DNA from: a virus | Taxonomy: Duplodnaviria; Heunggongvirae; Uroviricota; Caudoviricetes | Virus record (IMG/VR): IMGVR_UViG_3300032327_000093 | Coordinates: 5,215 to 69,214 of that record | Direction: 5' to 3' (one strand) | DNA: 64,000 nt | Shown: piece by piece, positions 1-49,082 of the stretch | How positions within the stretch are numbered: the stretch's first letter is position 1 | Layout: each line of letters starts with the position of its first letter | The notes under the pieces: model-generated | What the model was told of the DNA's origin: nothing | The model's input: only the letters and a program-made list of their open reading frames with translations | Databases searched by the model: none | Position numbers and translations under genes: made by a program

Positions 1-1404
1 CGTGAAGATACTAATGTGCGTGGACTAAAACCCGTACAGCAAGTAATCAAAGGTAAGGCTGTAAAGAAAGGTCCCTACGCTAATAGCATCACAGAAAGCA
101 AAGTAAACGAAGATGATTTGGCAGAACAAGACTTAATCGTTATCCCGGGACAAGGTAGATTAAGAAGAACTGGATTCGTTAAGCATGATATGGATCAGGG
201 TGAACATGAAGGGCACACATTAAAGAATAGTCTACACACTATTGCCCGTGCTGCTAGTGAATTAGATGAGAGATTGTCCGTTCAATCTGAATTCCCTGAG
301 TGGGTATCAGAGAAGATTGGCGCAGCAAAAGGCATGATGGTCAGTGTCATGGACTATCTAATCAGCAGCCAAGAGATGCAGCATGGTGCTATGGAAAGTA
401 CCAGTGGACTTGCATATGAAGATAGCGACGGTGGTGAACAGATGCTAGAGATGGCTATGGGAGAGTTGCGTAATATTGCAAAGAATTGCAAGCAGATACA
501 TGGTATGTTGAAGCAAGGTAAACAACTGGATACATGGGAATACAGTTATATCACAGTATCAAATGACCATATTGGTACAGTAGCAGATGTGTTAGCTACT
601 GATAGTGCCGACGGGGTGTCGGAGGCATTAAACTTAGATGATTTGAGAAAAGCAGCAGCAAGTTCCAGAAGTCCAGAAGATACTCAGGCTCTTAAACGCA
701 ATCCAGACTTTGCTAAAGTAATGCAAAAGAGTGTGAACAAACACAATAAAGCTGTAGTAAAAACTAAAAAAGATGTTGGCAGTAGAGTTGCTGATATTGG
801 TCCTGGTGGAAAAGAATATAACGTAAAGACTGATGCTGCATGGGATGCTGCTAAGAAAAGTGTAGACGAAGGTTGGAAAAGTAAAATTGGTGCTGCTGCA
901 CTGGCAGGCGCTGCCGCTTTAGGCGGAGGTGCAGCACATGCATCTGAGTTACCATCTATCATTGCTCAAATCACTTTTCAAGTAGATGGTAAAACAGTTA
1001 CTAAAGATATCAATCTTGGAACAGAATATCAAACTCCAGGACATGCGTCACAAGCGGTTAAAGATTTTATGAAATCTAAAGGTATAAAATACTATAATTT
1101 TAACTTACATCGTGCTGATGCTCAACCTTCTTTAGTTGACCCAGATGAAATGAATGCATCTAATCAAGAATATGAGAGACAATACAACTCGAATAATTTA
1201 AGTACTACACCATTTACAAGTAAAGGTGAGCAGTCTGCTAGGCTTCAACCAATGGCAAATGAAGGTGCTAAAGTAGATCGAATGGTCAAGCATGTAAAAC
1301 AATCTGAAAAGAAGTTAGGACATTCAAGTAAAGAGGCAGAGAACATTGCATGGGCAACTGCTAACAAGCGTGGCATGTTAGATAACAAAAACAAGAAAGC
1401 ATAA
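1..1404 (+). CDS. hypothetical protein, 5'-truncated at the window edge (reading frame is open from nt 1); has an Ala/Gly-rich central segment
   Basis: The ORF runs without a stop from the window start to 1404. The first in-frame codon listed in the track (GTG at 16) is not a true start. It sits immediately upstream of the CTS-like LysM gene, so it may be a virion-internal protein. Confidence 0.45.
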   Translation, partial: REDTNVRGLKPVQQVIKGKAVKKGPYANSITESKVNEDDLAEQDLIVIPGQGRLRRTGFVKHDMDQGEHEGHTLKNSLHTIARAASELDERLSVQSEFPEWVSEKIGAAKGMMVSVMDYLISSQEMQHGAMESTSGLAYEDSDGGEQMLEMAMGELRNIAKNCKQIHGMLKQGKQLDTWEYSYITVSNDHIGTVADVLATDSADGVSEALNLDDLRKAAASSRSPEDTQALKRNPDFAKVMQKSVNKHNKAVVKTKKDVGSRVADIGPGGKEYNVKTDAAWDAAKKSVDEGWKSKIGAAALAGAAALGGGAAHASELPSIIAQITFQVDGKTVTKDINLGTEYQTPGHASQAVKDFMKSKGIKYYNFNLHRADAQPSLVDPDEMNASNQEYERQYNSNNLSTTPFTSKGEQSARLQPMANEGAKVDRMVKHVKQSEKKLGHSSKEAENIAWATANKRGMLDNKNKKA

Positions 1405-1406
1405 TT

Positions 1407-3842
1407 ATGAGAACCAATGAATTTTTAGCAGAATTATCTAACGAAAAGCTAGCCAAATACAAAACTGCGGCTAGTGCTGACGCTACTAAAGCTGACAAAG
1501 AGGGAGACTTCAAAAAAGGCGATAAACGTTTCAAAGGTATCAATACTGCTACTAAGAAACAATTCGATAATGATGCCAAAAAAGTAACAGAAAATAAACA
1601 ATTTGTGTTAAATGAATCTTTATTGATGGAAGATCCTATCTATCGTCAATTCAAAAATGTTGGTAAGTATTTGTCTGAACGCAGACTTAGCAAAGAAGAA
1701 ATATATCAAATATTTGCTGATACTGAAGCTGACATGACAAATAAAGACACTGGTGCTAATCGTACAATGTTGGGTCGTGGCAAAGATGTAACAGGTAAAG
1801 CAGTAACAAGCGTTAAAGATTCTGTGTCAAACGTTTTGAATTCTATTCAAAATTCAGTTCCAGTATCAGCAGTTGATGTTGCATACGATCAAGCTACAGC
1901 TGCCTTAGGAAAAATGACAGGTGGTGAAAAAAGCAAGATAATGAAATCTATTATTGGATATCGTAATCTTGCTAAACAATATCCAAAAACAGCTGGCTTT
2001 GCTAAAGCAGCATTGGTTGCTGCTATTGGACTCGCTACCGGTGGAGCAGGACTTCCTGCTATAGCAGGACTAACTTACGCACTTGATAGTGCTATCAGAG
2101 GTGATAAGTTATCAAGTGTGATTGGTAAAGGAGCCGGCGCTGCTGCATTAGCATATGGTAGTCAAGCCTTAGCTTCTAAAGCTAACGCAGCAACTACACC
2201 AACAGGAGCTGATATACCCGGAGCAAATCCGCATCAATTAGACCCATCACAGATGCAACAACCTCCGGCAACTAATATACCCGGAGCAAATCCGCATCAA
2301 TTAGACCCATCACAATTTCAACCTACTCCTACTGATTTTCCCCCAGCTGCTAATGATATAGTAAAGACAGTTGCAAAAGGCGATACATTAAGTAATATTG
2401 CACAGCAAAATCAAACTAGTGTAGAAGTTTTAATGAGAGCAAATCCTCAAATAACTAATCCTAACGCATTAGCAATAGGAACTCAAGTTCATATTCCCCA
2501 AGTAAATGCACCTACATATCTACACGGTGTAGGAACTGCGAGTGATACCGCTGCTAAAACTGCGTCTGGTGCATATGATAGTGTACCAAAAGCATTAGGC
2601 AAACAAGTAGCAGCTACTAGAGGTGCTTGGACTGAAAGTATTTGGCAAGATAATATTCCTGCTAGAAATAAAAAAATTGTAGAATCAATTGCATTCAAAA
2701 AGTTATCGGCATATGATTTGATAGACAAAAAAACTACTGCGTTGAATTGGGCATTGAACGAAAGTATCGGTAATAAAACTAGAAATGTAAATTTAACTAC
2801 ATTAGGTGTATATACTATATTTGAAAATGTTGATCGTTATCGTCTTGCTGTAATGGAAGCAGAGGCTACCCCTCCTGAGCAATATCGTCCAGATCAACCA
2901 GGCGGCAAAGGCAAAGAAAGCAAACCCGGTATGATCGGAAGAGGGCTTAACTGGCTAGACAAAGCTGCCGGTAAAGTTGGTGGAGCATTAAGTAACTTTG
3001 GACATCAATTCACTACAAACGTCACAAAAGAAAAACTAAATATGAATTGGACTCAAGCAGGACAACCGAGTGATTCAGATCAATTAGCAGCTTTTATGAA
3101 AAAACAAGGTGTACCAGAAGAAGTAATCTCAACAGTATACACAAAAATGGGTCTACCGTTTACTATGACTCCAGCAGCAGCCACAGATACAGGTGGAGCA
3201 GGTGCTGGCGCATTTGGTAATATGGCAAATCAATTATCCGGAGCAAACAACAGCACAGCATCTACTGGAGGTTCAACATCAACTTCGGCGACAAATTCGG
3301 GTGGAACAGTAAATTCATTCACTGGTTCAGTGAATTCATATAAGAACGCAGGTCAAAGTAGTTTTCAACCGCGAGTAAGTGGTGGTGCAGCTTCTAGTAC
3401 AGGTAATACAGCACAACAGTCTCAACAAGCACAACAGCCGCAACAATCACAACAGCCGCAACAATCGCAGCAGCAACAAACAGAACCTAATACACCGCGT
3501 GAACAACAAGCGGTTACCCGTACAGTAAGACAACAGATTAATGATGTTATGCATACTATAATGACTCAACACAATGATGATCAACCTCCATTAGTAAAAT
3601 ATTTGCGTCAACAACTTGACAGTAGTTTTCCACCTGAAGTTGCAGCAACACCTAAAAGAGCAGCACGTAAAAGAGCAGCGCCTAAAGGAAAAAAACCTGA
3701 TAATACTATAGCAATGCCAAAGAAAGCTGAAAAATTTCGTGTGGGTAAAGATGTAATCACACCTGATAATCCTATGTATGATAAAATTAAAGCAGCTAGT
3801 GGAGTAAAAGAATCAGCAATATTAAAAGGCCTAAAAGGATAA
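1407..3842 (+). CDS. 811-aa LysM-domain protein with a CTS-like N-terminus (MRTNEFLAEL); putative encapsidated/ejected peptidoglycan-binding protein
   Basis: LysM signature VAKGDTLSNIAQQNQTSVEVLMRANPQI...GTQVHIP; Q/P-rich repeats (QQPQQSQQPQQSQQ; duplicated IPGANPHQLDPSQ); N-terminal decapeptide shared with ORFs 21174-22748(-), 23485-24909(-), 48319-48711 and 48708-49082. Confidence 0.55.
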   Translation: MRTNEFLAELSNEKLAKYKTAASADATKADKEGDFKKGDKRFKGINTATKKQFDNDAKKVTENKQFVLNESLLMEDPIYRQFKNVGKYLSERRLSKEEIYQIFADTEADMTNKDTGANRTMLGRGKDVTGKAVTSVKDSVSNVLNSIQNSVPVSAVDVAYDQATAALGKMTGGEKSKIMKSIIGYRNLAKQYPKTAGFAKAALVAAIGLATGGAGLPAIAGLTYALDSAIRGDKLSSVIGKGAGAAALAYGSQALASKANAATTPTGADIPGANPHQLDPSQMQQPPATNIPGANPHQLDPSQFQPTPTDFPPAANDIVKTVAKGDTLSNIAQQNQTSVEVLMRANPQITNPNALAIGTQVHIPQVNAPTYLHGVGTASDTAAKTASGAYDSVPKALGKQVAATRGAWTESIWQDNIPARNKKIVESIAFKKLSAYDLIDKKTTALNWALNESIGNKTRNVNLTTLGVYTIFENVDRYRLAVMEAEATPPEQYRPDQPGGKGKESKPGMIGRGLNWLDKAAGKVGGALSNFGHQFTTNVTKEKLNMNWTQAGQPSDSDQLAAFMKKQGVPEEVISTVYTKMGLPFTMTPAAATDTGGAGAGAFGNMANQLSGANNSTASTGGSTSTSATNSGGTVNSFTGSVNSYKNAGQSSFQPRVSGGAASSTGNTAQQSQQAQQPQQSQQPQQSQQQQTEPNTPREQQAVTRTVRQQINDVMHTIMTQHNDDQPPLVKYLRQQLDSSFPPEVAATPKRAARKRAAPKGKKPDNTIAMPKKAEKFRVGKDVITPDNPMYDKIKAASGVKESAILKGLKG

Positions 3843-4773: not shown

Positions 4774-5976
4774 ATGACTGAAACATTTTGTATATTACCA
4801 TGGATGTCCATGGCAACTAATCCTAAGGGCGAACTAAGAGTATGTTGCAATAGCACTGATAGTACTCCTGGAGCTATTAGTAATCTCATTACTAGACACG
4901 ACAATACTCCTTATCATATATTAGACGATGATATTGATAATTTTTGGAATAGTAAAATCTTAAAAAATTTAAGAAAAGATTTCCTTAATAATGTGAAACC
5001 AAAAATATGTCGCCAATGTTTTAGCTTAGAATCTTTTGGAATAACATCCCCTAGACAATTTTGTAATCAAAAATGGATGTTTGATTACGAACCTAGTATC
5101 ACCCCTCCTGTTATTATTAAATACATAGATATACGATTGGGAAATTTATGCAATTTAAAATGCAGAATGTGTAATCCATATTCAAGTAACCAATGGATCG
5201 AAGAATGGGGATTGGTGAAAGAACCATTGGATGATAAAACCAAAACACAATTATTTAAAATGGATTGGCCTAATAATGACAAGGTGTCTGAAAATTTATT
5301 GAAGTTTGCTAATACAATAGAAGAAATATACTTAACTGGAGGTGAACCAACTCTAGCTACAAGTCAATATATATTGTTTGATAAATTAATTGAATTGAAT
5401 GTAGCTAAAAATATTACTCTGAAGTACAATACCAATTGCACAAATTTACCAAAAAAAATGATTGACTATTGGAAACACTTTAAAAAAATTTCGCTGAATG
5501 CTAGTGTAGATGCATATGGAGACCTCAATAGGTATATAAGATACCCAACTGGATGGAGTTTAGTTGAAACTAATTTAATGAAATTTAAAGAATTATCGCA
5601 TGAAAATATAAATTTAGCAATACATATTACGGTTCAAATGTATAATATATTACACCTAGACAAATTATTAGAGTTTTTAAATATGCACCAAATAAACAAT
5701 ATTTATTTAAGTATACTAGATCACCCATCATGCTTAAACATTAAATTATTACCAGTTGAATTGAAAGAATTAGCTAGAGATAGATTACAGCCGTTTATGC
5801 ACATTCACAGAGTTAAAAACATTATAGATTATATGTTATCTGAAGATTTAAGTTTACGACTTAGCGCATTTAAAATGTATACACTGGCACTTGATAAAAG
5901 TAGAAATGAATCGATTTTAGATTTGGTTCCAGAAATGAAAGATATATTTAATACTAAAGATAATAGTTCACACTAA
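4774..5976 (+). CDS. radical SAM enzyme (CxxxCxxC) with extra N-terminal Cys motif; substrate unknown
   Basis: GNLCNLKCRMCNP is a canonical CX3CX2C radical SAM cluster motif; N-terminal CILPW...RVCC cysteine motif; GGEPTL SAM-binding-like segment. Confidence 0.55.
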   Translation: MTETFCILPWMSMATNPKGELRVCCNSTDSTPGAISNLITRHDNTPYHILDDDIDNFWNSKILKNLRKDFLNNVKPKICRQCFSLESFGITSPRQFCNQKWMFDYEPSITPPVIIKYIDIRLGNLCNLKCRMCNPYSSNQWIEEWGLVKEPLDDKTKTQLFKMDWPNNDKVSENLLKFANTIEEIYLTGGEPTLATSQYILFDKLIELNVAKNITLKYNTNCTNLPKKMIDYWKHFKKISLNASVDAYGDLNRYIRYPTGWSLVETNLMKFKELSHENINLAIHITVQMYNILHLDKLLEFLNMHQINNIYLSILDHPSCLNIKLLPVELKELARDRLQPFMHIHRVKNIIDYMLSEDLSLRLSAFKMYTLALDKSRNESILDLVPEMKDIFNTKDNSSH

Positions 5977-7223: not shown

Positions 7224-7832
7224 ATGCTAAAACTGCTCTTTCCATTACCAAAAGAAATCGTTATCGCATTTAGTGGCGGTGTTGATAGTGTTGCTATCAC
7301 AGATTTCCTTTCACAAAAACATAAGGTAACTTGTGCTTTCTTCCATCATGGAACAGAGAATAGTGAACGAGCATTAGAATTTGTTGCTAAATTCTGCACC
7401 GAACGTAATCTTCCACTTATGATTGGATTGATTAAGAATCAGAAGCCAAAAGAACTTAGCACAGAAGAATATTGGCGAAATGAACGCTATGACTTCTTAG
7501 ATAGTTTTGGTGATTCATTGGGTCCAGTAATCACTGGGCATCATTTGGATGACTGTGTAGAAACATATCTTTGGTCATCACTTCACGGACAACCAAAAGT
7601 TATTCCATCAAAAAGAAACAATGTTGTACGCCCATTTCTAACTACACACAAAAGTGAATTTACAAATTGGTGCGAACGAAAAGATATCAATTGGTGTCAC
7701 GACAATAGCAATGATGACACAAAATATATGCGTAACTATGTAAGAACACATCTCATGCCACACGCATTACATATTAACCCAGGATTGCATACTGTGGTTA
7801 AAAAGATTGTAGAAAGTCAGCAAAATGTTTGA
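7224..7832 (+). CDS. PP-loop ATPase, TilS (tRNA(Ile)-lysidine synthetase) N-domain-like; alternatively a QueC-like amidotransferase-type ATP pyrophosphatase
   Basis: SGGVDS PP-loop (IAFSGGVDSVAI) plus GHHLDDCVETYLWSSLHG, which matches the TilS HHxDDQxET signature; only 202 aa (N-domain only). Confidence 0.5.
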   Translation: MLKLLFPLPKEIVIAFSGGVDSVAITDFLSQKHKVTCAFFHHGTENSERALEFVAKFCTERNLPLMIGLIKNQKPKELSTEEYWRNERYDFLDSFGDSLGPVITGHHLDDCVETYLWSSLHGQPKVIPSKRNNVVRPFLTTHKSEFTNWCERKDINWCHDNSNDDTKYMRNYVRTHLMPHALHINPGLHTVVKKIVESQQNV

Positions 7833-15770: not shown

Positions 15771-15959
15771 ATGAACGCACATAATGATATTAAAACACAA
15801 TTGGCAGCATATGAAGCCGAACATGAAAAGTTTGAAAAAGGTAATGCAGCCGCTGGAACACGTGCCCGTAAAGCATTGGGCGAACTAGCTAAAGCAGTTA
15901 AGGCACGCCGTAATGAAATCACCGCTGAAAAAGCAGCAAGAAAAGAAGCTAAGGCTTAA
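15771..15959 (+). CDS. small Ala/Lys-rich basic protein (histone-H1-like / nucleoid-associated-like)
   Basis: AAGTRARKALGELAKAVKARRNEITAEKAARKEAKA; RBS aaaggaaacaaaATG. Confidence 0.35.
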   Translation: MNAHNDIKTQLAAYEAEHEKFEKGNAAAGTRARKALGELAKAVKARRNEITAEKAARKEAKA

Positions 15960-16038: not shown

Positions 16039-16716
16039 ATGAGTTATAATAAAACAAAAACAGATCCAGAACTGGGTCAAAAAGTACACGAACATTTGGT
16101 TAAGATGGGAGTTGAGACTCCTACAAAGCCAACTATCTTTGATCGTAAAGATAAAATTGAAGTCATTGAAGCGCATTTTTCACAAATCATGCGTACTCTT
16201 GGGCTTGATTTAGAAGATGATAGTTTGTGTGATACGCCAAAGCGTGTAGCAAAGATGTATGTCAACGAAATCTTTTGGGGTCTTGATTATGAGGCATTCC
16301 CTAAATGTACAGCAGTCGATAACAAGATGAAGTACAATGAAATGGTGTGCGAACGCAATATCAATGTACAAAGCAATTGCGAACATCACTTTGTAGTCAT
16401 CGATGGTCTCGCTACTGTCGCATATGTTCCCAATCAAAAGGTTCTAGGATTGAGTAAAATCAATCGTATCGTAGAATACTTTAGCAAGCGTCCACAGATA
16501 CAAGAACGATTGACTGAACAAATCTTTCACACACTACAGTATATTCTAGACACCGAAGATGTAGCGGTCATGATTGACGCACAACATTATTGTGTCAAGA
16601 GTCGTGGGGTAGAAGATACTGGCAGTAGTACTGTCACAAGCAAGCTAGGCGGTGGCTTCAAAAGTGACCCAGCAGCAAGAGCAGAATTCTATCAATTGGC
16701 TCGGGGCGGGAAATGA
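16039..16716 (+). CDS. folE: GTP cyclohydrolase I
   Basis: CEHHFVVIDG active-site signature; 225 aa. Confidence 0.85.
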   Translation: MSYNKTKTDPELGQKVHEHLVKMGVETPTKPTIFDRKDKIEVIEAHFSQIMRTLGLDLEDDSLCDTPKRVAKMYVNEIFWGLDYEAFPKCTAVDNKMKYNEMVCERNINVQSNCEHHFVVIDGLATVAYVPNQKVLGLSKINRIVEYFSKRPQIQERLTEQIFHTLQYILDTEDVAVMIDAQHYCVKSRGVEDTGSSTVTSKLGGGFKSDPAARAEFYQLARGGK

Positions 16717-17174
16717 TATTTAATAGAATCAAAGAACTAAAACAACAAGGCCTAAAGATAGGTATCGTATTCTCGCAATTTGATATATTACATGCAGGAC
16801 ATATCGCAATGCTTAGTGAAGCTAAGAATCATTGCGATTACCTAATTGCTGGATTACAAAACAATGCACAATGGGACAGACCCGAAAAGAATTCACCCAT
16901 TCAAAGTATCGTTGAACGCCAGATAAGTTTAAGTGCTGTACGTTTCGTAGACGAAATCGTAGTATATAACACAGAAAAAGATTTGGAAGACATACTGTTG
17001 ACATTGCCAGTAGATGTGCGTATACTAGGGGTTGAGTACATGGAGAAAGACTTTACTGGTCGTGCAATCTGTGAGAAGCGTAGGATTGAATTGGTATTCA
17101 ATAGTCGTGACCATAGTTTTAGTAGTAGTAGTTTGCGTAAACGTGTAGTACAAGCTGAATCAAAGGATAAATAG
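16713..17174 (+). CDS. sugar-phosphate nucleotidyltransferase, HldE domain II / cytidylyltransferase-like (HxGH)
   Basis: GIVFSQFDILHAGHIAMLSEAKNHCDYLIAGL matches the FDILHAGH...GD.LIV pattern of ADP-heptose synthase (HldE C-domain) and TagD-type cytidylyltransferases. Confidence 0.6.
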   Translation: MIFNRIKELKQQGLKIGIVFSQFDILHAGHIAMLSEAKNHCDYLIAGLQNNAQWDRPEKNSPIQSIVERQISLSAVRFVDEIVVYNTEKDLEDILLTLPVDVRILGVEYMEKDFTGRAICEKRRIELVFNSRDHSFSSSSLRKRVVQAESKDK

Positions 17175-17200
17175 AGATAGCGGTCTCGGCGTCATCCCGC

Positions 17201-17229
17201 TTTACAAATTCTGCTGCCTATGCTATAAT
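17201..17229 (+). promoter_or_regulatory. promoter TTTACA-17 nt-tgcTATAAT (extended -10) with inverted repeat CCTATG...CATAGG around the -10
   Basis: tttacaaattctgctgcctatgctataat, followed by aggagaaaatcATG (queD). Confidence 0.45.
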
Positions 17230-17245
17230 AACATAGGAGAAAATC

Positions 17246-17728
17246 ATGGCAAAGAAATATTTCAGTACAAAAACGTACAAACAGATAGGTCCAGTAGCTT
17301 ATCGTCAATGGCGTGCAGATAGTCATTGTAATCTAATTCACGGTTACGCAATGTCGTTTCATTTTGAATTTGAAGCAGATACATTGGATGCACGTAATTG
17401 GGTTACAGACTTTGGTGGATTAAAACCACTCAAAGGCTTACTAGAAGATTGGTTCGATCATACATTACTAGTCGCACAAGATGACCCAATGCGTGAACAT
17501 TTACTTGAATTGGGTAGATTGAAACTAGCTAAGATTACAGAAGTAGAAAAGACAGGATGCGAAGGTATTGCTGACTTTTTATATGAATATGTGAACACTA
17601 TCTTTCTGCCAAACTGTGGTAGCGAAGAAGCTAAACGTGTCTGGTGCTGTAAAGTAGAGGTTAGAGAGACAGATAGTAACATGGCAGGTCGTCAAGGTCA
17701 TAGAGAAGATAACGAATTTCAGGATTAA
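17246..17728 (+). CDS. queD: 6-carboxy-5,6,7,8-tetrahydropterin synthase (QueD/PTPS family)
   Basis: CNLIHGY...DFGGLK aligns with the QueD C..LHGH...DF.ELK pattern. Confidence 0.7.
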   Translation: MAKKYFSTKTYKQIGPVAYRQWRADSHCNLIHGYAMSFHFEFEADTLDARNWVTDFGGLKPLKGLLEDWFDHTLLVAQDDPMREHLLELGRLKLAKITEVEKTGCEGIADFLYEYVNTIFLPNCGSEEAKRVWCCKVEVRETDSNMAGRQGHREDNEFQD

Positions 17729-17729
17729 C

Positions 17730-18572
17730 ATGGCAAAATTAAAAATAGCAGAACTATTTTACAGCATTCAAGGTGAGGGTAGATACACGGGTGTCCCTTC
17801 CGTGTTCCTAAGAACATTCGGCTGCAACTTCAAATGTGCAGGATTTGGTATGCCTAAGGGTGAATTAAGTCAAGAAGCAAATAATATTGATGCGACAAAG
17901 TATACTGATTACAAGATGTTACCTCTTGTGTCTACTGGATGTGATAGTTATGCAAGCTGGGATCCAAGATTCAAAGACTTGAGTCCAATGCTTGAGACTG
18001 ATACTATCGTTGATAGCATCATGGATATGTTACCACATAAGCGTTGGTTAGATGAACATCTTGTTATCACAGGAGGTGAACCACTACTAGGCTGGCAGCG
18101 TAGTTATGTTGATTTACTTTCACATGATAACATGAAAGGCTTACAAGAATTGACTTTTGAGACTAATGGCACACAGGCATTACATCAGGATCTAAGATTC
18201 TTTTTGAATAAATGGTGTGTCAGTCGCAGTATGGGTTCTATCACATTCAGCGTCAGTCCTAAACTCAGCATCAGTGGTGAGAAGTGGGATGATGCAATCT
18301 GTCCAGACATAATCTATGAGTACAGCCAAGTTGGGCATACATATCTAAAATTTGTAGTAGCTACTAACGAGGATATGGAAGAAGCTGAGGAGGCAGTAAA
18401 TGCGTATCGTAAGAGGGGTTTTCGTGGTCATGTTTATCTCATGCCTTGTGGTGGCGTTGAGCGGGTGTACAATCTTAATAATAGGGCAGTGGCAGAAATG
18501 GCAATGCGAAAAGGATGGCGGTATAGTGATAGACTACAAGTGCCGTTATTCAAAAACGAGTGGGGCACTTGA
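17730..18572 (+). CDS. queE: 7-carboxy-7-deazaguanine synthase (radical SAM)
   Basis: ELFYSIQGEGRYTGVPSVFLRTFGCNFKC is a strong QueE N-terminal signature. Confidence 0.8.
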   Translation: MAKLKIAELFYSIQGEGRYTGVPSVFLRTFGCNFKCAGFGMPKGELSQEANNIDATKYTDYKMLPLVSTGCDSYASWDPRFKDLSPMLETDTIVDSIMDMLPHKRWLDEHLVITGGEPLLGWQRSYVDLLSHDNMKGLQELTFETNGTQALHQDLRFFLNKWCVSRSMGSITFSVSPKLSISGEKWDDAICPDIIYEYSQVGHTYLKFVVATNEDMEEAEEAVNAYRKRGFRGHVYLMPCGGVERVYNLNNRAVAEMAMRKGWRYSDRLQVPLFKNEWGT

Positions 18573-18817: not shown

Positions 18818-19011
18818 GATTTGAAATGCGTTGGCTTGTTACACCAAATTGGGATGAAGGTCCCGAGAAGATATTACAATATCGCTATGAAAGAGAAATA
18901 ACAGATTACAGTTTACAGAACCCAACTACAGGTTCATTTATAACTAGAAAAGAATTGACTGAATGGATCGATGTTCCAACAGTAGATGAGGCGTGGAATG
19001 CGGACATATAA
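18814..19011 (+). CDS. hypothetical small protein
   Basis: ORF. Confidence 0.3.
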   Translation: MRFEMRWLVTPNWDEGPEKILQYRYEREITDYSLQNPTTGSFITRKELTEWIDVPTVDEAWNADI

Positions 19012-20356
19012 CAAACGCATTGGCTTCCTAATTGCGGATCAACATTTTATTCCACATGGTGGAATAGGACAATTTGCTAAAGGCTTTACAGAGTTATGTC
19101 AGCGTATCAACTGGAAAGTTGATATCATATTAGACAAGCAACCTACAAATGATTTTAGCGAATATGTAAAATCATTGGGTGCTAATATTGTATATCCTGA
19201 TGATCCATTAAGATATTCTTCACATACTGCTACATTCGCATTTAGTGATAGCATTAACTTTGAGAAGATGGTTAACTTTAGAGAAAGTTTACTAAAGGCT
19301 TTTCATACTAATATCTATGACATGCTAGTGTGTAACACACAGGAAGCAATGAGTGCTGCATATGCTATGGGCATTGGTAAGTATATTCCAGTAGTATTCT
19401 ATACACATTCATATAGCATGGTATTTCGTGATGAACAAGATTTTAGTGATGTTTGCATAGATGAATATCATAGTTACTTCAATAAACATATGGAACTGGC
19501 ACATGTTTTTGTAGGCACACAGAGTCAAAAAAATGTAAATGAACTTACTAAGTACGGGGCAAAGAATGTTGCATTATTGCGTATGCCATTGAGTGAACGT
19601 GGATTACTTGAGCCTAACAATGGACCTCGTAGTGGTGTATTGTTTATTGGTCGTTGGGAAGAACGCAAGAATCCGTCAGCTTATATTAAAGTAATGAAAG
19701 AGACAGGATTGCCTTGTAAGGTAATGACTAATGGTACTGGTGCAAAGAAGTTTGAGAAAGCATTTAGTGAAGCTGGTATCACAGACTATGAAATCAAAAT
19801 TGCCATTGTAGGACAAGAGAAGGTAGACTTCATTAAGAGTTGTAAAGTATTCTTCATGCCAGCATTAGGCGAGAACTATCCGTTTGCGTTTAGTGAATGC
19901 TTAGGACATATGCCATGTGTTGTATTGGACAATCAGGAATGGTCCGATAACTTTGATGAAAAGTATTTCTATAAAGAGAAACTAGAAAACGCAGGCAATT
20001 TAATCAGCATGTTATATATTGTTGATAATTATTATACTACTGGTGCATTAGATTATATATATGACCTAGATGATGTTACGGCTAAAGGTTGGATAACATT
20101 CTTGGACAATTTCGTTGCAAAGCGTAGCAATACAAATGCAGCAAAGATTAACACATATGAAACTGTATGCTACCGTGACTATATAAAAGAATTGAATCGT
20201 AGTCACTTAGCCCGTGAAGATTTTGAAAGTGTATTGGCTAATCGTCAGAAGTTTATCATTAACACATATACAGATGACAATAGCTATTTGAGTAAAGACC
20301 CGTTATTCAAGCCAGTAGAAGAAGAAACAGGGTTAGACTTATTCGAAGGATTATAA
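18986..20356 (+). CDS. glycosyltransferase (GT-B, group-1/GT4-like), paralog of 14586-15758
   Basis: LFIGRWEERKNPSAYIKVM resembles the GT4 E-x7-E region; 456 aa. Confidence 0.5.
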   Translation: MRRGMRTYNKRIGFLIADQHFIPHGGIGQFAKGFTELCQRINWKVDIILDKQPTNDFSEYVKSLGANIVYPDDPLRYSSHTATFAFSDSINFEKMVNFRESLLKAFHTNIYDMLVCNTQEAMSAAYAMGIGKYIPVVFYTHSYSMVFRDEQDFSDVCIDEYHSYFNKHMELAHVFVGTQSQKNVNELTKYGAKNVALLRMPLSERGLLEPNNGPRSGVLFIGRWEERKNPSAYIKVMKETGLPCKVMTNGTGAKKFEKAFSEAGITDYEIKIAIVGQEKVDFIKSCKVFFMPALGENYPFAFSECLGHMPCVVLDNQEWSDNFDEKYFYKEKLENAGNLISMLYIVDNYYTTGALDYIYDLDDVTAKGWITFLDNFVAKRSNTNAAKINTYETVCYRDYIKELNRSHLAREDFESVLANRQKFIINTYTDDNSYLSKDPLFKPVEEETGLDLFEGL

Positions 20357-21177
20357 TGAAAAAAGTATTAATAACAGGGAACAGTGGTTACATAGGTAGT
20401 CATCTTAGTAAGATGCTATACAAAGATTATGAATTGTATGGACTAGATATTAATCCATCACAGTTCCCTGTAACAGACCATTTTCAAGTTGATATCAATA
20501 AAGTATTCAATATGGATATGGAATTTGATTGTGTGATTCATTTAGCAGCATTGGTCAACGTAGGCGAAAGTGAAAAGAAACCTATTCAATATTACATTAC
20601 TAACCTGAATGGTACAATGAATGTTATCAACAAGATAAAGACAAAGAATTTTATCTTTGCTAGTACAGGTGCAGCAGTAGGTTGTGCTAGTGCGTATGGT
20701 ATCAGTAAACGTGCTGCGGAAGATGTTGTGCGTGAGTATTGCACACAGCATAGACCTACACCATATACTATCTTTAGATTCTACAATGTGATTGGTAGTG
20801 ATGGGTTTGAACCAACTAATCCAGATGGACTAATGTATAACTTAATGCAAGCAAAAGAGAAGGGTGAGTTTACTATCTTTGGTACTGATTATAATACATT
20901 TGATGGAACTTGCATTCGTGACTATGTGCATGTGAATGAGATATGCGATGCATTGCGTACTGCTATCGAAAAGCCAAGCAATCAAGTAGAATCATTAGGC
21001 CACGGTACAGGTCATACAGTTAGACAGATTGTTAACCTATACAAGAAGGTCAACAACATTGACTTTCTAATAAAAGAAGGGCCAAGAAGAAAGGGTGACT
21101 TAACAATATCTGTGTTAGATAATGTGTCACCCTATATGAAAGAGTTATACTCTTTAGAACAACTACTTAAGGTTTAA
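20356..21177 (+). CDS. NAD-dependent epimerase/dehydratase (short-chain dehydrogenase/reductase (SDR) family, short form)
   Basis: N-terminal Rossmann TGNSGYIGSHL; catalytic YGISK (YxxxK). Confidence 0.6.
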   Translation: MKKVLITGNSGYIGSHLSKMLYKDYELYGLDINPSQFPVTDHFQVDINKVFNMDMEFDCVIHLAALVNVGESEKKPIQYYITNLNGTMNVINKIKTKNFIFASTGAAVGCASAYGISKRAAEDVVREYCTQHRPTPYTIFRFYNVIGSDGFEPTNPDGLMYNLMQAKEKGEFTIFGTDYNTFDGTCIRDYVHVNEICDALRTAIEKPSNQVESLGHGTGHTVRQIVNLYKKVNNIDFLIKEGPRRKGDLTISVLDNVSPYMKELYSLEQLLKV

Positions 21178-22748
21178 TGTCTTAATAGTAATGTTGATAT
21201 AACGTTAGGATCGTTTGCACTGATATCACCTTCACCCGGTGCAACGATAACATTATATTTCATACCAGCTGGTATTGATTTGCGTTTAGCCATGTACTCA
21301 GCATAACTCAATATAGAGTTAGAACTTAATCCATACTGCTTAGCCAATCTTTGTTTTAGTTCAGGTAGTTTGTCAGGTTGTACTTGCCATTGTCCTTCTT
21401 CCCCTTTAACTAAGTTTTTCTTTTCATCCTTGACTAATAAGTCTTGGAACAATTCATCAGGAACAATGCGACTATTCTTAGTTGTATCTAAGTTAGCGTC
21501 TTTAGCTTTAACTTGTTTCTCTTGGCTTGTGTGAGCACCTTCACTCCAATTGATGATGAAGTTGTCTGGCTTATCTGCTAATGCTGCACCAGCCATCTTA
21601 GTGTAAGCATAGAATCTTACATCAGGGTGTTTAGCAGCCATCTTTAGTGCCATGTCTAAGTATTCTGGACTAAAGAAGTCACCAGCATCATGCCAACGAA
21701 TTGTTGTTTGCCAACCATTAGGGAATTTCTTATCACCCTTTGCTCCTGCACTTGCTTCTTTAGAAATCTCAGCACTTAACTGATTAAAGAAACCATCTGG
21801 ATCATTCAATAGATATGTAAGTATTCTTCCGTCACTTTGCCATGGACCTTGGAATTGAATCTTGCCGCCTTTCATAGCGAAACAATCTACTTTACAACTA
21901 CCAGCACCTGGGCATGTGTTAACAACGATTAGATTATTTGTTTGTTCGTCTAGTGCTAATCCAACCAATGCTGCAAAACCAACATTAAAGAATTGCTCAA
22001 ACTCACCATTACTATGCTTCATCTTTTCATTTTGCTTTAGTAATGTTTTAGGACGAATCGCTAATGTTTTCTTAACCGCATCTTCATCAAATGTTTGACC
22101 ATCTGGACTCATGTAAGTAACTACACTACTACGATGTATGTAAGGCATTTTATATCTGTCTGATTTTGTTTTACCAGACACATACTTTTCATTACCCTTT
22201 TTATCTACTTTAACATTGCCTTGTTTATCTACATCGGGTGTACCAATGATACGCTTCATGTAGTCTTGGAACTCTTGACCACCCAAATCACGGGTACTTG
22301 CTGGTAGTTTAGTTGCTTCATCTAGTCCAGATAGGCTACGAATTCTACTCAATTGTGATTCGGATAATCCATCTTCAAGTTCTTCTGCTGGCCAACTCAT
22401 ATGGCTGCGACCATGCTCATCACCGGCACGAACAACAAACACGCCACCATTGTCATACCCATCATCTTGACCGATTTCCCAACCTGCTGACATTAGTAAT
22501 TTTTCTACACGAGGATCTTCATCACCGTTCCACCATTGAGCAGCAAGACGTTTTAGTGTTTCGTCACTAAATCCATCATCACCATCATCATTAGGAGCGA
22601 ACTCTTTTAATTCTTCATCAGATTCTTCTTTGTCAGATTTTGCATCACCGGCACTAGCAACGAATTGCTGAGGTGTCATAATCTTTATGCCACTAGGGGC
22701 ACCTGGCATACTTGGCTCTGCGCCCTCAAATAGTTCTTTGAAATTCAT
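21174..22748 (-). CDS. hypothetical 524-aa protein with CTS-like N-terminus (MNFKELFEGA); putative encapsidated/ejected protein
   Basis: First gene (3' end) of a three-gene minus-strand block; acidic N-region; CTS-like decapeptide. Confidence 0.5.
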   Translation of the reverse strand: MNFKELFEGAEPSMPGAPSGIKIMTPQQFVASAGDAKSDKEESDEELKEFAPNDDGDDGFSDETLKRLAAQWWNGDEDPRVEKLLMSAGWEIGQDDGYDNGGVFVVRAGDEHGRSHMSWPAEELEDGLSESQLSRIRSLSGLDEATKLPASTRDLGGQEFQDYMKRIIGTPDVDKQGNVKVDKKGNEKYVSGKTKSDRYKMPYIHRSSVVTYMSPDGQTFDEDAVKKTLAIRPKTLLKQNEKMKHSNGEFEQFFNVGFAALVGLALDEQTNNLIVVNTCPGAGSCKVDCFAMKGGKIQFQGPWQSDGRILTYLLNDPDGFFNQLSAEISKEASAGAKGDKKFPNGWQTTIRWHDAGDFFSPEYLDMALKMAAKHPDVRFYAYTKMAGAALADKPDNFIINWSEGAHTSQEKQVKAKDANLDTTKNSRIVPDELFQDLLVKDEKKNLVKGEEGQWQVQPDKLPELKQRLAKQYGLSSNSILSYAEYMAKRKSIPAGMKYNVIVAPGEGDISANDPNVISTLLLRH

Positions 22749-23488
22749 TTCTTATTGTTCCTAATAAATTGTTCAGCAAGCATTACTAATTCGTGTAGTT
22801 CCTCAATAGATTCGCAATGCCATCTACGTAGACTTTTATTTATATTGCTGTTTGGGTCTCGTGCTGTTTTAGCACCGGTACGATGTTTCTTCATGCCACG
22901 CATTCTTGCACAGAAGCTAGCACGGCGTTTTGCTGCCTTACTACCTTTTTTAAGTTTACTTGGTTTAGTTGTCACTGCTGTTTGAATCTTGCTGCCAGGA
23001 TGACTGCGGCGATAACTCTTAACAGACTTTTTACTCATTCCGCCTACACGTTTGTTGTTGTGCTTTGACCAATTCTCGCCTTCATCCATATCTTGCTTCA
23101 CTCTAGAAACTGGAACGATAAGTGATTCGTATTCGCTGATATCAACAATATATGCCGGGGACTCTATACCTTTGCCTGAATCATATCTAACGATTTTACC
23201 TGAAACCATTTTTCCCTTGTGAGGTACTGTAACTTGTGTTCCAGGAGAAAGAATAGTACTCTCTCCCTCCGCCAAACCTTCTGATTTGTTACCATAGTTA
23301 GCTGCACCTTTTTTGCGACATTGTACTAGCCTACCTGACGCATACGCACTTGGCCATACCTTAGCAGAAGATTTTATCTTGTAATAGCAAGCATCTTTTT
23401 TCTCCATGAGTTCAGATTCTGAAACTATTGGTCCACCGCAATGTGGGCATTTGTTATGCGATTCAGTTATGATTTCTAATATTTTCAT
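22745..23488 (-). CDS. zinc-ribbon (CPHCGG) protein with Lys/Arg-rich tail; N-terminus MKILEIITES is CTS-like
   Basis: C-x2-C...C-x?-C zinc ribbon near the N-terminus; basic C-terminal half (KKGSKAAKRRASFCARMRGMKKHR). Confidence 0.5.
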   Translation of the reverse strand: MKILEIITESHNKCPHCGGPIVSESELMEKKDACYYKIKSSAKVWPSAYASGRLVQCRKKGAANYGNKSEGLAEGESTILSPGTQVTVPHKGKMVSGKIVRYDSGKGIESPAYIVDISEYESLIVPVSRVKQDMDEGENWSKHNNKRVGGMSKKSVKSYRRSHPGSKIQTAVTTKPSKLKKGSKAAKRRASFCARMRGMKKHRTGAKTARDPNSNINKSLRRWHCESIEELHELVMLAEQFIRNNKK

Positions 23489-24909
23489 TTTCCTTTTCCT
23501 TTAGTACTGACATTTATTGCTTTACCTGAACGATTAGCATTAGGATCCTCACGGCGTTTTCTAGCAGCAGCCGATGCTCTTCCTTTTTTACCTAAACTAT
23601 GTGCTTTGCTTTGTGGTAGACATTTGGGTTTTCCTTCTGATTCACTTCCTCTAGCACAGTCTCCGCGGATCTTTCCATCTGGGCCAAATCTCACCCATTT
23701 CTCTTTGAACCATTTGTGTAGATTTTCAAGTACTTGTTCTGTCTCTGTAGCTTCTGTACTTTCTTTCGGGACACAATTAGGAACTTGTTTGCCGCCCTTA
23801 TTTTTCATGCCCACTTGCTTATGTGTACTCCAACATGCTTCATCTAATTGTTTTACTATCCAATCATCAGGAATCATATGGTTTTTCTCAACAAATTCAT
23901 TATGTAATTCATCACCAGTCAAATTATGTTTTTTACAAACTGATTGCATCATTTTGTCAATATTCGTATAATTTAACTTTATATCTCTTTCTTTTGCCTT
24001 TAGCAATAGTTTTTCTAATGTGTGTACTGCCCCCGGTATTTCTTCACCAGAAACTTTGAACGGCTTCATGTTTCCTGACTTCATAAATTCAGGTTTCTTT
24101 TCCTCAGCCACACCTTGTGATTTGCGGATATACTCATTGGCAGCATTTTGTGCATCTTTGCTGTCATCACCAAAATGAAGATTTACAATATTTGAATAAA
24201 TTTTACTTGCTTGTTTCTTATGTTTATCAGCAGTTGTGTAGTCTCCGCGATTTTCCGCTTGCCGTGCTTGACTTTTATGTTTGGAATAAATTTTAATTTT
24301 ATCATCTAAAGAAAGCATCTTGGAGCCTTCCGCCACACCTTGCTCTCCGATGTTTACACTTTGTGAAGAATGAAACGGGCTGTGGATGTTGGTATCATCG
24401 TCAGTTGACGGATCGCGGCGTTTCATTTTAGCAGCATGTGCATCATCACTGTGCATTTTATTAACCAAGGCTCTCATTGGATCAGTTTTCTCTAATTTCT
24501 TCTGCGCTCTTAATTTGTCCATGTGACGATCAAATGCTGCTGAATCAAATGCTTCCGCTACACTCTGCTCACGCTCTGCTTGACGCTGTGCCCAACGCTC
24601 TTTGTTGCGTTGGACTTGTTGAGGACTTGCTTTCTTTTCTTTGCTTAGGTCACGATATAATGCTCGACCCAATGCGCTGGTATGAGGATTCTTTTCAGCC
24701 TCTGCGGCTTTGTTGGCCGCACGGCGCCTTTTCATGTAATCTGCGTTGTCTCGATCAGTGGATCCTGAACCTTGATCCGCAAACACCTCATCAATCTGGT
24801 CACCTTCCGCCACACTTTTTGGCTTCTTGCCAGCTTTCTTCATAGCGATGGCTATCGCTGCTTGCTGTGCAGGACTACCAGCTTCGGATATAAATTCGGT
24901 AAATCTCAT
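23485..24909 (-). CDS. hypothetical 474-aa highly charged protein with CTS-like N-terminus (MRFTEFISEA)
   Basis: ORF; low-complexity K/E/R/D-rich sequence. Confidence 0.5.
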   Translation of the reverse strand: MRFTEFISEAGSPAQQAAIAIAMKKAGKKPKSVAEGDQIDEVFADQGSGSTDRDNADYMKRRRAANKAAEAEKNPHTSALGRALYRDLSKEKKASPQQVQRNKERWAQRQAEREQSVAEAFDSAAFDRHMDKLRAQKKLEKTDPMRALVNKMHSDDAHAAKMKRRDPSTDDDTNIHSPFHSSQSVNIGEQGVAEGSKMLSLDDKIKIYSKHKSQARQAENRGDYTTADKHKKQASKIYSNIVNLHFGDDSKDAQNAANEYIRKSQGVAEEKKPEFMKSGNMKPFKVSGEEIPGAVHTLEKLLLKAKERDIKLNYTNIDKMMQSVCKKHNLTGDELHNEFVEKNHMIPDDWIVKQLDEACWSTHKQVGMKNKGGKQVPNCVPKESTEATETEQVLENLHKWFKEKWVRFGPDGKIRGDCARGSESEGKPKCLPQSKAHSLGKKGRASAAARKRREDPNANRSGKAINVSTKGKGK

Positions 24910-36238: not shown

Positions 36239-36405
36239 CCGAAGAAAAGAAAAAGAATCCAATAGCGTTGGCACTAGAAGCCAAAAAGAAAAACGCACTA
36301 TTAAACCCTGGCTTAGGCAAAGCACCTAAGAGTCAAGGTCCTAAAGCAAATAGTAAAGGCTTTGGTGGGGCAAGTGTTACACGCAGAGCGGGTCGCGGTG
36401 GTTAA
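36235..36405 (+). CDS. small basic protein (56 aa; K-rich N-terminus, GRGG C-terminus)
   Basis: Not in the ORF track; ATGA-coupled. Confidence 0.3.
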   Translation: MTEEKKKNPIALALEAKKKNALLNPGLGKAPKSQGPKANSKGFGGASVTRRAGRGG

Positions 36406-36896
36406 TACCACTCACCTTCGTTACGCATACGTTTAATAAAAGACAAGTAATTACTACATACACCGAAACAACGTAGATGTACTGTACTATACATACCTCT
36501 ATCTTGTATCTCAGGTAGAAAGATAACACTATTATTGTTTACGGGAACTGTACCCGGGGTAATGATTTTACCATTACTTGCGGTTACTGGTGTACTTTCA
36601 GTGTCAGTTGGGAACCAGAAGTAATTTGGATAATATTTACTTGGCTGTGTCACTATCCAATTTTGCATTTCAGTATTCATAGCATTCAACCAGAAACGAG
36701 GACCTTGTAAATACTTTTCGGTCACTTCAGTTATAGGTTGAGTAACACCCAAATATAGCTTTCCGTTATCGCGCCATACATTGACCATAGTGCTGAATCC
36801 AGCATTCATTGATTTAGTTATTTGTTTTGGGGTACAAGCGTCCTCAAAATTGGTTCCGTCGTAGATACCCTGATAAGATATATATTGTAAATTCAT
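36402..36896 (-). CDS. orphan reverse-strand hypothetical protein (164 aa, W/Y/N-rich)
   Basis: Only minus-strand ORF in a ~25-kb plus-strand region; no plus-strand ORF competes for the interval. Confidence 0.45.
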   Translation of the reverse strand: MNLQYISYQGIYDGTNFEDACTPKQITKSMNAGFSTMVNVWRDNGKLYLGVTQPITEVTEKYLQGPRFWLNAMNTEMQNWIVTQPSKYYPNYFWFPTDTESTPVTASNGKIITPGTVPVNNNSVIFLPEIQDRGMYSTVHLRCFGVCSNYLSFIKRMRNEGEWY

Positions 36897-36970
36897 GTAG
36901 TATTTAGCGTAAATGGGTAAAGAGTTTTGTATCTTGTCAACGGTTTTATCCTGAGGGGCGTTATATATAT

Positions 36971-37144
36971 ATGCGTGATAAAAATCAAACTGATTGCTAC
37001 GATGTTACGAAACGGGATAAAACCGAATCGTTTCAGGAACAATATCTGCCCAGAGGTTATGATTGGCGTAAATCCAATTGTGACGAAAAGCGTATTGGTC
37101 CATGTAAATTGAAGGATGAATATATCAAGCATAAACTTTCATAA
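36971..37144 (+). CDS. small Cys-containing protein (57 aa)
   Basis: Not in the ORF track; more plausible than the antisense ORF 36893-37132. Confidence 0.3.
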   Translation: MRDKNQTDCYDVTKRDKTESFQEQYLPRGYDWRKSNCDEKRIGPCKLKDEYIKHKLS

Positions 37145-37161
37145 ACTTAAAGGAAACTTAA

Positions 37162-37422
37162 ATGAAAACTATCGCTACTCTTATCGCTACACTAGCTACA
37201 ACTATCGCCTTCGCCGCAGAGACTGCTAAACCAGTCGGCCCTGCTGCACCCGCAGCTACCCCAGTAGCAACTGCACCCGCAGCTACTGCTCCTGCTAAAA
37301 AGGAAGAAATGAAGCTAGCTAAGAAGGAGGGTGCCAAACAGGACTCTACCAAAAGCCATAAGTCTACCAAGGACAAAAAAGCTACAGCTAAAGCTGAGCC
37401 AGCAAAAGCCGCTACTAAGTAA
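37162..37422 (+). CDS. secreted low-complexity Ala/Pro/Lys-rich protein with Sec signal peptide
   Basis: MKTIATLIATLATTIAFA-AE signal; RBS aaaggaaacttaaATG. Confidence 0.5.
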   Translation: MKTIATLIATLATTIAFAAETAKPVGPAAPAATPVATAPAATAPAKKEEMKLAKKEGAKQDSTKSHKSTKDKKATAKAEPAKAATK

Positions 37423-37630
37423 TACGATATTTGACGATAATGATGACGATGATGATTCAGAAGAACTAGATTATCATCGTGCATACGGTCGTCCTAAAGT
37501 ACACAAGGTAAAAGAAACAGTTACAGACTTTGATGATGATGAACCATTATCAGATTATGTAACTGTTAGGTTAGCTGTTGCACGAGCAAAAGCTATGTTA
37601 AAATATAGAGAAAACTCTGTGCAGGCATAA
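37331..37630 (+). CDS. possible small acidic protein with a poly-Asp tract (DDNDDDDDSEE); start uncertain, overlaps the 37162 gene
   Basis: ORF in a different frame; no clear start after 37422. Confidence 0.25.
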   Translation: MPNRTLPKAISLPRTKKLQLKLSQQKPLLSNTIFDDNDDDDDSEELDYHRAYGRPKVHKVKETVTDFDDDEPLSDYVTVRLAVARAKAMLKYRENSVQA

Positions 37631-48711: not shown

Positions 48712-49082
48712 GAGCCAGTGAGTTTTTAACTGAAGGTGAGGGTAAGATGCATCACAATCATAGTCAAGCCACACAGGGTGTTTATAAAAGCCGTGATATT
48801 GGTGGTTATGACCGCATCTACCACTTGAATCGTCTAATGATGGCTATGGGTATGGCAGACGGCAAGAGTAAAGATGCAGTTGAAATGGATAATTCAAGTT
48901 TTGCTGAAAAGTATAACACAGTTCATCCATATACCGAAGAAGAACATAACATGTTTATATCGGCTACAAAGACTATTCCAACTGATAAAAAGAATGTTGT
49001 TCCATACTCAAAGAGTAAAGAACCTGAAGATACAAATACACAAAGTTTAGTTAAACCATTCAAAGGTTACAAAAGAAAATAA
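48708..49082 (+). CDS. small protein with CTS-like N-terminus (MRASEFLTEG), paralog of 48319-48711
   Basis: As above. Confidence 0.45.
   Translation: MRASEFLTEGEGKMHHNHSQATQGVYKSRDIGGYDRIYHLNRLMMAMGMADGKSKDAVEMDNSSFAEKYNTVHPYTEEEHNMFISATKTIPTDKKNVVPYSKSKEPEDTNTQSLVKPFKGYKRK

Follow-up and report, generated by a model that had tools for sequence, protein, structure and literature searches.

The three-gene block

Three minus-strand genes in a 64,000-nucleotide stretch of IMG/VR virus record IMGVR_UViG_3300032327_000093, called the window below, encode proteins that begin with similar short peptides and carry related short motifs at internal positions. We refer to the N-terminal peptides as leaders, to the internal motifs as joints, and to the genes and their products as p474, p247 and p524, after the protein lengths in amino acids. 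The open reading frames (ORFs) are arranged head-to-tail, and each neighbouring pair overlaps by 4 nucleotides, which suggests translational coupling. A UvdE-like endonuclease gene (divergent) and an epimerase gene (convergent) flank the block. These ORFs, with the N-termini MRFTEFISEA, MKILEIITES and MNFKELFEGA, had been reported in an initial annotation, and we find its coordinates to be exact. The block had also been described as the only multi-gene strand inversion in the window, and this holds on independent gene calls made on the ENA contig, where the only other opposite-strand gene is a single one of 164 amino acids (36402-36896). A second multi-gene inversion at 36402-37484 was rejected, because those calls retain only the 164-amino-acid gene.

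The p474 gene (23485-24909, minus strand, as are all features of the block) encodes a polyprotein-like protein in which a leader is followed by about five modules split by xVAE joints. The leader, MRFTEFISE (24883-24909), is predicted to be cut after E9, ahead of an Ala. The joints, with an arrow at the predicted cut, are S-V-A-E↓G at amino acids 32-35 (24805-24816), which closes a 26-amino-acid leader module AGSPAQQAAIAIAMKKAGKKPK, S-V-A-E↓A at 116-119 (24553-24564), (Q)G-V-A-E↓G at 191-194 (24328-24339) and (Q)G-V-A-E↓E at 266-269 (24103-24114). Homology to IMG/VR contigs is module-wise, the basic C-terminal modules are common to cyanophage proteins, and all PHROG matches are to families of unknown function. 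A 26-amino-acid element of the form A(G/N)(S/P)PAQQAAIAIAMKKAGKKPK stands directly behind the leader (24808-24882, amino acids 10-34) and is ended by an xVAE joint. In related loci, 19 proteins have the same element (AANPAQQAAIAIAMKK..VAE) at residue 10; it may extend the targeting signal or be set free as a peptide.

The p247 gene (22745-23488) encodes a leader, a Cys-containing module with the motifs CPHC...KKDACYYK...VWPSAYASG, a small beta domain and a basic DUF6321 module. Its leader, MKILEIITE (23462-23488), has a predicted cut after E9, followed by Ser. One joint, G-L-A-E↓G at amino acids 71-74 (23267-23278), aligns to SVAE or GVAE in homologues, and another, D-M-D-E↓G at 133-136 (23081-23092), lies directly before DUF6321, with E136 invariant and G137 nearly so in an alignment of the family (alignment A2). 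The DUF6321 module itself (amino acids 137-247; 22748-23080) corresponds to a very basic predicted mature product of 111 amino acids, with a pI of ~10.

In p524 (21174-22748) the leader, MNFKELFE (22725-22748), is predicted to be cut after E8, and both E8 and the following G9 are invariant in the family. A family-specific N-terminal element and a hypervariable insert separate the leader from a conserved GP88 body (amino acids 131-524; 21177-22358), which carries C-x5-C-x3-C, RWHDAGDFF and YAYTK motifs and is a predicted mature, enzyme-like product. At the border between insert and body is the joint G-L-S-E↓S (amino acids 127-130; 22359-22370), which aligns to QGVAE↓G in most homologues.

A leader carried by unrelated proteins

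We compared the window with a related set of 156 IMG/VR loci around homologues of the 474- and 524-amino-acid proteins. A strict leader pattern, M[RKN]xx[EQDH][FLIVM][FLIVMHY]xE[GAST], stands at the N-terminus of 113 of the 3509 gene products of the window and related loci, against 3 of 18789 internal Met positions. Within the window, 4 of 93 genes carry it, where ~0.015 would be expected. The enrichment of N-termini over internal Met positions rejects a chance or compositional origin of the leader. The consensus of 153 distinct leaders is M1 R2 A3 (N/T/S)4 E5 F6 (I/L)7 x8 E9, followed mostly by Ala, Ser or Gly. The shared decapeptide proposed in the initial annotation is thus far above chance, with two qualifications: the p524 leader is a variant one residue shorter (M-x-x-x-x-L-x-E↓G, that is L6-x-E8↓G9), and an 811-amino-acid protein elsewhere in the window has Leu after the Glu.

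The proteins behind the leader are diverse. With their first 15 residues removed, leader-bearing proteins fall into 28 groups that are unconnected by BLAST, at least 20 of which begin MRAxEF.. or MKxxE.., and mutually dissimilar proteins begin MRANEFI.E, MRATEFITEA and MRALEFLNET. A single paralogous family as the source of the leader is rejected by these 28 groups. Homologues of all three block proteins retain the leader while their bodies vary: GP88 homologues start MNFKEL.EG or MKI..L.EG, and DUF6321 homologues start MRF.EIISE, MRIKEFINEA or MKILDIITE, with some that start MKTYQFITE. Codon use at E5, F6 and E9 corresponds to the background of the same genes (GAA 78-82% versus 79%; TTT 76% versus 70%), which points to selection on the peptide and not on the DNA, and rejects a DNA-level element as the cause of the conservation.

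Internal joints at module borders

The joints are a second signal, beyond the leader that the initial annotation had noted. QGVAE occurs twice in the window, both times in p474, against 0.016 expected, and three more copies are in proteins of 1024 and 448 amino acids encoded upstream. GVAE is found 245 times in 808 thousand amino acids of island loci (those of the block and its counterparts in relatives), where it is ~8 times denser in leader-bearing proteins, and 4 times in 700 thousand amino acids of head-module loci. Of the endpoints of internal BLAST high-scoring segment pairs, 20.9% lie within 8 amino acids of a G[VL]AE site, versus 6.1 +/- 0.8% for random placement.

The two families represented in the block place the joints more precisely. 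In the GP88 family (alignment A1), conserved residues 1-35 are followed by the hypervariable insert, which mostly ends in QGVAE↓G exactly before the 394-residue body. In the DUF6321 family (alignment A2), every member has the Glu ahead of the module, and almost every one has the Gly. Across 110 DUF6321 homologues, which make up the 20 commonest junction types, only V, M, L, I or F stands third before the predicted cut (P3), and only E directly before it (P1). The T4 prohead protease gp21 cuts after L/I-x-E (PMC9026906; PMC3012670). In sequence, the xVAE↓G joints match the cleavage logo of gp21 (hydrophobic-x-Glu↓Gly) and lie at module boundaries.

Neither proteolysis nor targeting would be needed if the leader served expression or folding, or were a recombination linker, and the xVAE↓G motifs flexible linkers spread by module shuffling. 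Leaders and linkers are obvious recombination joints, and the Arg-2 codon is AGA in 89% of leaders against a background of 38%, a bias of the kind that efficient initiation regions typically show. However, the background-like codons at E5, F6 and E9 indicate that the peptide is what is conserved, a plain linker needs neither an invariant Glu nor the hydrophobic P3 seen in the 20 junction types, and the motif equals a known protease logo. We regard this explanation as highly improbable.

Domains of the block proteins

Residues 237-414 of p524 match the Pfam family GP88 (PF17338) with 85.5 bits, against a cut-off of 24.4, and residues 147-223 of p247 match DUF6321 (PF19846) with 40.9 bits, against a cut-off of 28.5. 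The function of both families is unknown. GP88 bodies from more than 2000 proteins of environmental origin are 60-94% identical. DUF6321 modules have more than 7900 environmental homologues and share 87-97% identity among relatives. In Streptomyces phage Gilgamesh, the gene for a GP88 homologue falls between those for the major capsid protein and the head-to-tail adaptor. Judged from sequence, DUF6321 is a general aquatic-phage module that is placed behind the leader here, and our best guess, by analogy with the T4 internal proteins IPII and IPIII, is that its product is a DNA-associated basic internal protein.

Searches beyond Pfam were negative. A profile of alignment A1 had no significant match among PDB sequences, the three block proteins had no match in NCBIfam, and a literature search found no paper that names DUF6321, PF17338, the T4 capsid-targeting string or these motifs in phages. 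The initial annotation had described one of the proteins as a Zn-ribbon protein, but p247 scores only 13.9 bits against Zn_ribbon_3, where the cut-off is 27, and has one CPHC pair and distant Cys residues in a region where its structure model is unreliable. It had also proposed that the 524-amino-acid protein be compared with ADP-ribosyltransferases and that the set be considered for anti-restriction roles; no such similarity appeared in Pfam, in the profile search against PDB or in NCBIfam.

The island in related phages

In each of at least 80 syntenic loci, the island is bordered by a UvdE-like gene on one side and epimerase/glycosyltransferase genes on the other, and occupies the strand opposite to them. 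GP88 is its constant anchor. Upstream of GP88 is always a leader-bearing protein that ends in DUF6321 and has a variable middle, of 122 to 826 amino acids, and downstream are 0 to 5 different leader-bearing genes. The island is conserved but hyperplastic among relatives.

This plasticity resembles that of T4 internal-protein loci, and bears on the proposal, made in the initial annotation, that the proteins are candidates for anti-restriction or host-takeover effectors. In its fullest form, the block proteins would be fast-evolving effectors like T4 IPI* or Alt, with the 524-amino-acid protein possibly an ADP-ribosyltransferase. The variable inserts and variable leader-bearing neighbours fit such a role, as does the position of the block, which abuts 7-deazaguanine-type modification, glycosyltransferase and epimerase genes and so recalls IPI*, a protector of modified DNA. 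However, the high identity of GP88 and DUF6321 (60-97% over both) is the opposite of what is seen in fast-evolving effectors of the T4 internal-protein or Alt type, and none of the homologues is known to be annotated with a role in defence or anti-defence. An effector role in this sense is unlikely, and of the earlier proposal it is the part left without support.

Other leader-bearing genes

The initial annotation assigned the decapeptide to six proteins. The three outside the block have the N-termini that it gave, and all six are present, but the set is larger. The first of these three is the 811-amino-acid LysM protein (1407-3842, plus strand; leader MRTNEFLAE, then Leu), which combines a LysM peptidoglycan-binding domain with Gly/Ala-rich hydrophobic stretches. 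The others are a 130-amino-acid protein (48319-48711, plus strand; MRAKEFVTE↓G) and its 124-amino-acid paralogue (48708-49082, plus strand; MRASEFLTE↓G). These paralogues sit among tail-fibre genes and have a common C-terminal F-K-G-Y (..RGFKGYPK and ..KPFKGYKRK).

Two further genes extend the set. One encodes 493 amino acids and begins MRIKQILETTT 77 nucleotides ahead of the window, so that only its 3' part (1-1404, plus strand) lies within it. The other encodes the 1024-amino-acid protein mentioned above (MKLREFITEA; L160 3017-6091, within 10 kb upstream of the window), which has a ligase-like KxDG motif (ELKWDG), a match to Pfam DUF6267 and two QGVAE joints. The 448-amino-acid upstream protein (L160 7117-8463) starts MNLKELHSF and has one QGVAE joint. 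In many relatives the GP88 gene is directly followed by a gene, absent from the window, for a 184-amino-acid protein that resembles Fe/Mn-superoxide dismutase (SOD; Sod_Fe_C, WWEHAW) and starts MRDIIQLLED (for example L082 11572-12126 and L462 2817-3371).

These genes raise the question of whether the leader, as a docking or propeptide signal, could serve some other assembly or compartment, such as the tail, baseplate, membrane or periplasm. The location of the two paralogues among tail-fibre genes would suit a tail signal, and LysM domains with hydrophobic stretches, as in the 811-amino-acid protein, are typical of tail-associated or envelope-crossing proteins. Nevertheless, the nearest parallels to the leader are all head proteins (the T4 capsid-targeting sequence, the gp24 propeptide and PA5oct gp333), and cleavage at hydrophobic-x-Glu is a prohead protease signature (PMC9026906). 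A destination other than the head therefore seems very unlikely.

The source phage and its neighbourhood

The window comes from an uncultivated jumbo phage. Its sequences are also found on two scaffolds of one ENA metagenome assembly (ERZ28594406, KRAE22-1), scaffold_22 of 123,870 bp and scaffold_59 of 88,653 bp, and because they span both, the genome is at least ~212 kb. No DNA-level similarity to GenBank phages was found. TerL is of T4 type (Pfam Terminase_6N/6C), with 48-50% identity to the TerL proteins of Pseudomonas phage PA5oct and Sinorhizobium phage Phosso, and downstream of its gene are a gp32-like single-stranded DNA-binding protein, a RecA/UvsX homologue and a UvsY homologue. By these sequence markers (TerL, gp32, UvsX and UvsY), the lineage is probably T4-like. 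The T4-type late promoter motif TATAAATA has five matches in the window, none of them ahead of the three-gene operon, so the timing of expression cannot be inferred from it.

Several observations concern variation among these phages. The ENA assembly breaks inside the p474 gene (window ~24000-24400), where scaffold_22 stops after 297 codons and scaffold_59 begins at ~24.3 kb, which suggests that the module region contains repeats or varies within the population. A collagen-repeat tail-fibre gene encodes 1719 amino acids in the window (56853-62012) versus 1707 on the ENA contig (L002 4841-9964) despite identical terminase, so the window derives from a strain or assembly that differs slightly. 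By TerL, the nearest large contig is IMG/VR contig 3300027736_001324 (L335, L121; 263.7 kb), with a TerL that is 94% identical and a GP88 that is only 71% identical. The two genes are ~109 kb apart there, versus 39 kb in the window, and the identity gap together with the changed spacing points to mosaicism or rearrangement.

Genes with Pfam labels of a DNA-modification type abut the block (4774-5976, 7224-7832, 16039-18572 and 18986-21177). They comprise a 7-deazaguanine pathway set (radical SAM, PP-loop ATPase, GTP cyclohydrolase I, CTP-transferase-like, PTPS/QueD and QueE-like), followed by a glycosyltransferase-like gene and then an NAD-epimerase gene. A 62-amino-acid protein encoded at 15771-15959 has a Pfam match to Hc1, the chlamydial histone-like protein.

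Head modules of the PA5oct type

In PA5oct, the head module has the order portal, gp333, gp332, gp21-like protease, scaffold and major capsid protein (MCP). Its gp333, a virion protein detected by mass spectrometry, starts MKINDIITEG. Hundreds of environmental relatives of this module are annotated with Portal_T4, Peptidase_S77 and Gp23. They encode a small post-portal protein that starts MKAKDLLVE.. or MRATELLVE.., a scaffold that starts MAKKIDEILSE↓S and an MCP with ..ALLE↓G.

The presence of the same leader type on a post-portal head-core protein, in PA5oct and its environmental relatives, suggests an alternative in which the block proteins are directed to the prohead and undergo cleavage, yet are not delivered. 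In that case they would belong to the scaffolding core, as T4 gp22, gp67 and gp68 do, with fragments that are broken down or expelled before the DNA is packaged. T4 core proteins typically have several cut sites close together (PMC9026906), and GP88 and DUF6321 are conserved in the manner of assembly components. On the other hand, the island is distant from any head module and its gene content differs between close relatives, enzyme-like cargo (GP88, Fe/Mn-SOD-like, ligase-like KxDG) is ill-suited as scaffold, and the basic, DNA-binding-like products resemble T4 IPII and IPIII, which stay in the head. We therefore consider a purely core role doubtful.

A predicted packaging and processing system

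The leader is independent of its cargo, conserved as a peptide and matched to T4, and it is backed by joints at module borders. For these reasons, we think it probable that leader and joints together represent a packaging and processing system of the T4 capsid-targeting-sequence (CTS) type, and that the block proteins are head cargo packed with the DNA. The comparison with the T4 CTS and head packaging drawn in the initial annotation is supported to this extent by comparative evidence. Targeting, cleavage, packaging and ejection are each steps that we infer from sequence.

Under this proposal, the three genes would form a translationally coupled operon in a hyperplastic island of a T4-like jumbo phage. 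The leader would act as the T4 CTS does and dock each product to the prohead scaffolding core, after which a prohead protease of the gp21 family would cut behind the Glu of hydrophobic-x-Glu and so remove the leader. If the same protease also cut the internal (Q)G-V-A-E↓G-type joints, the proteins would behave as polyproteins. In that event p474 would yield five or so predicted peptides of 26 to 205 residues, mostly basic; p247 would yield a Cys-containing piece of 65 amino acids and a basic piece ending in the 111-amino-acid DUF6321 module; and p524 would yield an acidic variable spacer and the conserved 394-amino-acid GP88 body. The basic products would most likely remain with the packaged DNA, like T4 IPII and IPIII, and exit the head with it, and GP88 would be carried in the head as an enzyme of unknown chemistry.

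Several results weigh against this interpretation. Neither a gp21-like protease nor a portal or Gp23-type capsid gene was found in ~84 kb (the window and 10 kb on each side) by BLAST and tblastn searches that used head proteins of T4 and PA5oct as queries, and the same queries had no match in ~2.5 Mb of island-flanking DNA from the 156 loci of relatives. In five MCP searches (IMG/VR with the MCPs of PA5oct and of loci L247, L295 and L297; one protein database), no head module on a contig with GP88 or with this TerL was among the matches listed. This lack of a head module tied to GP88-bearing contigs is due in part to extreme conservation of the MCP, which is 65-94% identical among the hundreds of head modules retrieved, and tetranucleotide profiles gave no decisive pairing of head modules with this phage. 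The leader is also less regular than a strict signal might be: position 10 is not always small (A24, S24 and G14, but also Y13, N13 and V11, with Leu in the 811-amino-acid protein), and the p524 leader, offset by one residue, lies inside a family-specific conserved N-terminus of 35 residues (alignment A1), so that targeting in this protein may need more than the leader. DUF6321 also occurs in podoviruses of Pelagibacter and Prochlorococcus that have genomes of 33-38 kb and are not T4-like (HTVC024P, P-SCSP1 and Lederberg), and the module alone therefore implies neither head packaging nor a gp21-type head. In P-SSM2, the protein PSSM2_123, which shares several of the modules, lacks the leader (it starts MANKSGDSS) and is not annotated as a virion protein. 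Finally, AlphaFold models of the 524- and 247-amino-acid proteins are poor (pLDDT 56.7 and 53.6, respectively), and too weak for any function call.

A broader reading, which we put forward more tentatively and hold to be somewhat less than an even chance, is that leader and (Q)GVAE↓G joints constitute a clade-wide packaging code, such that any domain placed behind the leader and between joints would be loaded into the prohead and then released separately. The island would then be a cassette system with which a very abundant group of uncultivated jumbo phages shuffles dozens of modules and delivers them into the host. Candidate modules include GP88, the Fe/Mn-SOD-like and ligase-like proteins, ParB-like fusions and basic DNA-binding peptides. 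If such a code exists, the injected proteome could be predicted from sequence alone.

If the CTS-type interpretation is true, the proteins that a very large group of uncultivated jumbo phages packages in the head, and probably injects, could be listed by a simple motif search, and polyprotein-like cargo made of shuffled modules would come under the T4 CTS principle. GP88 and DUF6321, both widespread domains, would gain a testable cellular context, and natural leaders and linkers would become available for packaging proteins in engineered phages. If it is wrong, the motifs stay an unexplained, strongly selected feature of these genomes.

Comparison with known systems

Inner-body and ejection proteins of phages phiKZ, 201phi2-1 and SPN3US are processed by their prohead proteases at multiple sites after Glu, within a three-residue motif, and their propeptides are flanked by redundant sites (PMC9026906). 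Like the block proteins, they are large, multi-site-processed proteins of jumbo phages that reside inside the head, features that are predicted from sequence here. However, the motif in those phages is S/A-x-E (A-x-E in SPN3US), whereas P3 here is hydrophobic (V/L/I/M), as in T4. Membership in the phiKZ-type inner-body group was rejected on the V/M/L/I/F residues at P3 of the 110 junctions and on TerL, which is T4/PA5oct-like.

The propeptides of T4 gp24, gp23, gp67 and gp68, together with PA5oct gp333, place the same type of N-terminus on shell and core proteins of T4-like heads; T4 gp24, for example, starts MAKINELLRE↓STTT. Those proteins are structural and are encoded in the portal-protease-capsid module, whereas the block proteins are not homologous to them and are encoded in a separate, inverted island.

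Cyanophage-type modules link the block to P-SSM2, a T4-like cyanophage with an annotated gp21 protease. PSSM2_123, encoded between gp15 and gp16, contains three or four of the same small modules (a basic WF..KPKC module, CW.GY..VPNC, KKDACY..VWPSAYASG and DUF6321), and V-x-E↓G precedes modules in it (FVNE↓GAAW and VVEE↓GKKDACY). Unlike in the block, these modules are fused in one protein and stand in a different order.

The closest parallel is with the T4 internal proteins. In the T4 reference sequences, IPII and IPIII start MKTYQEFIAE↓A and IPI starts MKTFKEF...ITE↓A. For packaging, the first ten residues of IPIII are enough; targeting involves residues 4 and 7, and processing is directed by residues 8 and 10 (PMC9026906; PMC3012670). 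T4 core proteins are cut at several sites, and further basic proteins with leaders that resemble the CTS are found in T4-related phages (PMC9026906; PMC3012670). In both systems a short leader is found on unrelated proteins, and E-F-(I/L)-x-E here reproduces F7, I8 and E10 of T4; a predicted cut after hydrophobic-x-Glu, basic products and a hyperplastic locus are further similarities. The differences lie in the leader, which at 9 amino acids is one shorter here (MRAxEF.. versus MKTYQEF..), and in the cargo. There are at least 20 cargo families here, some of them enzyme-like; many members are large, multi-module polyproteins with repeated (Q)GVAE↓G joints; and the core cargo, GP88 and DUF6321, is highly conserved, whereas T4 internal proteins are fast-evolving. 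The system is thus probably a known mechanism, consisting of a T4-type leader and gp21-type joints, in a new modular form with polyprotein-like cargo in a very abundant group of uncultivated jumbo phages.

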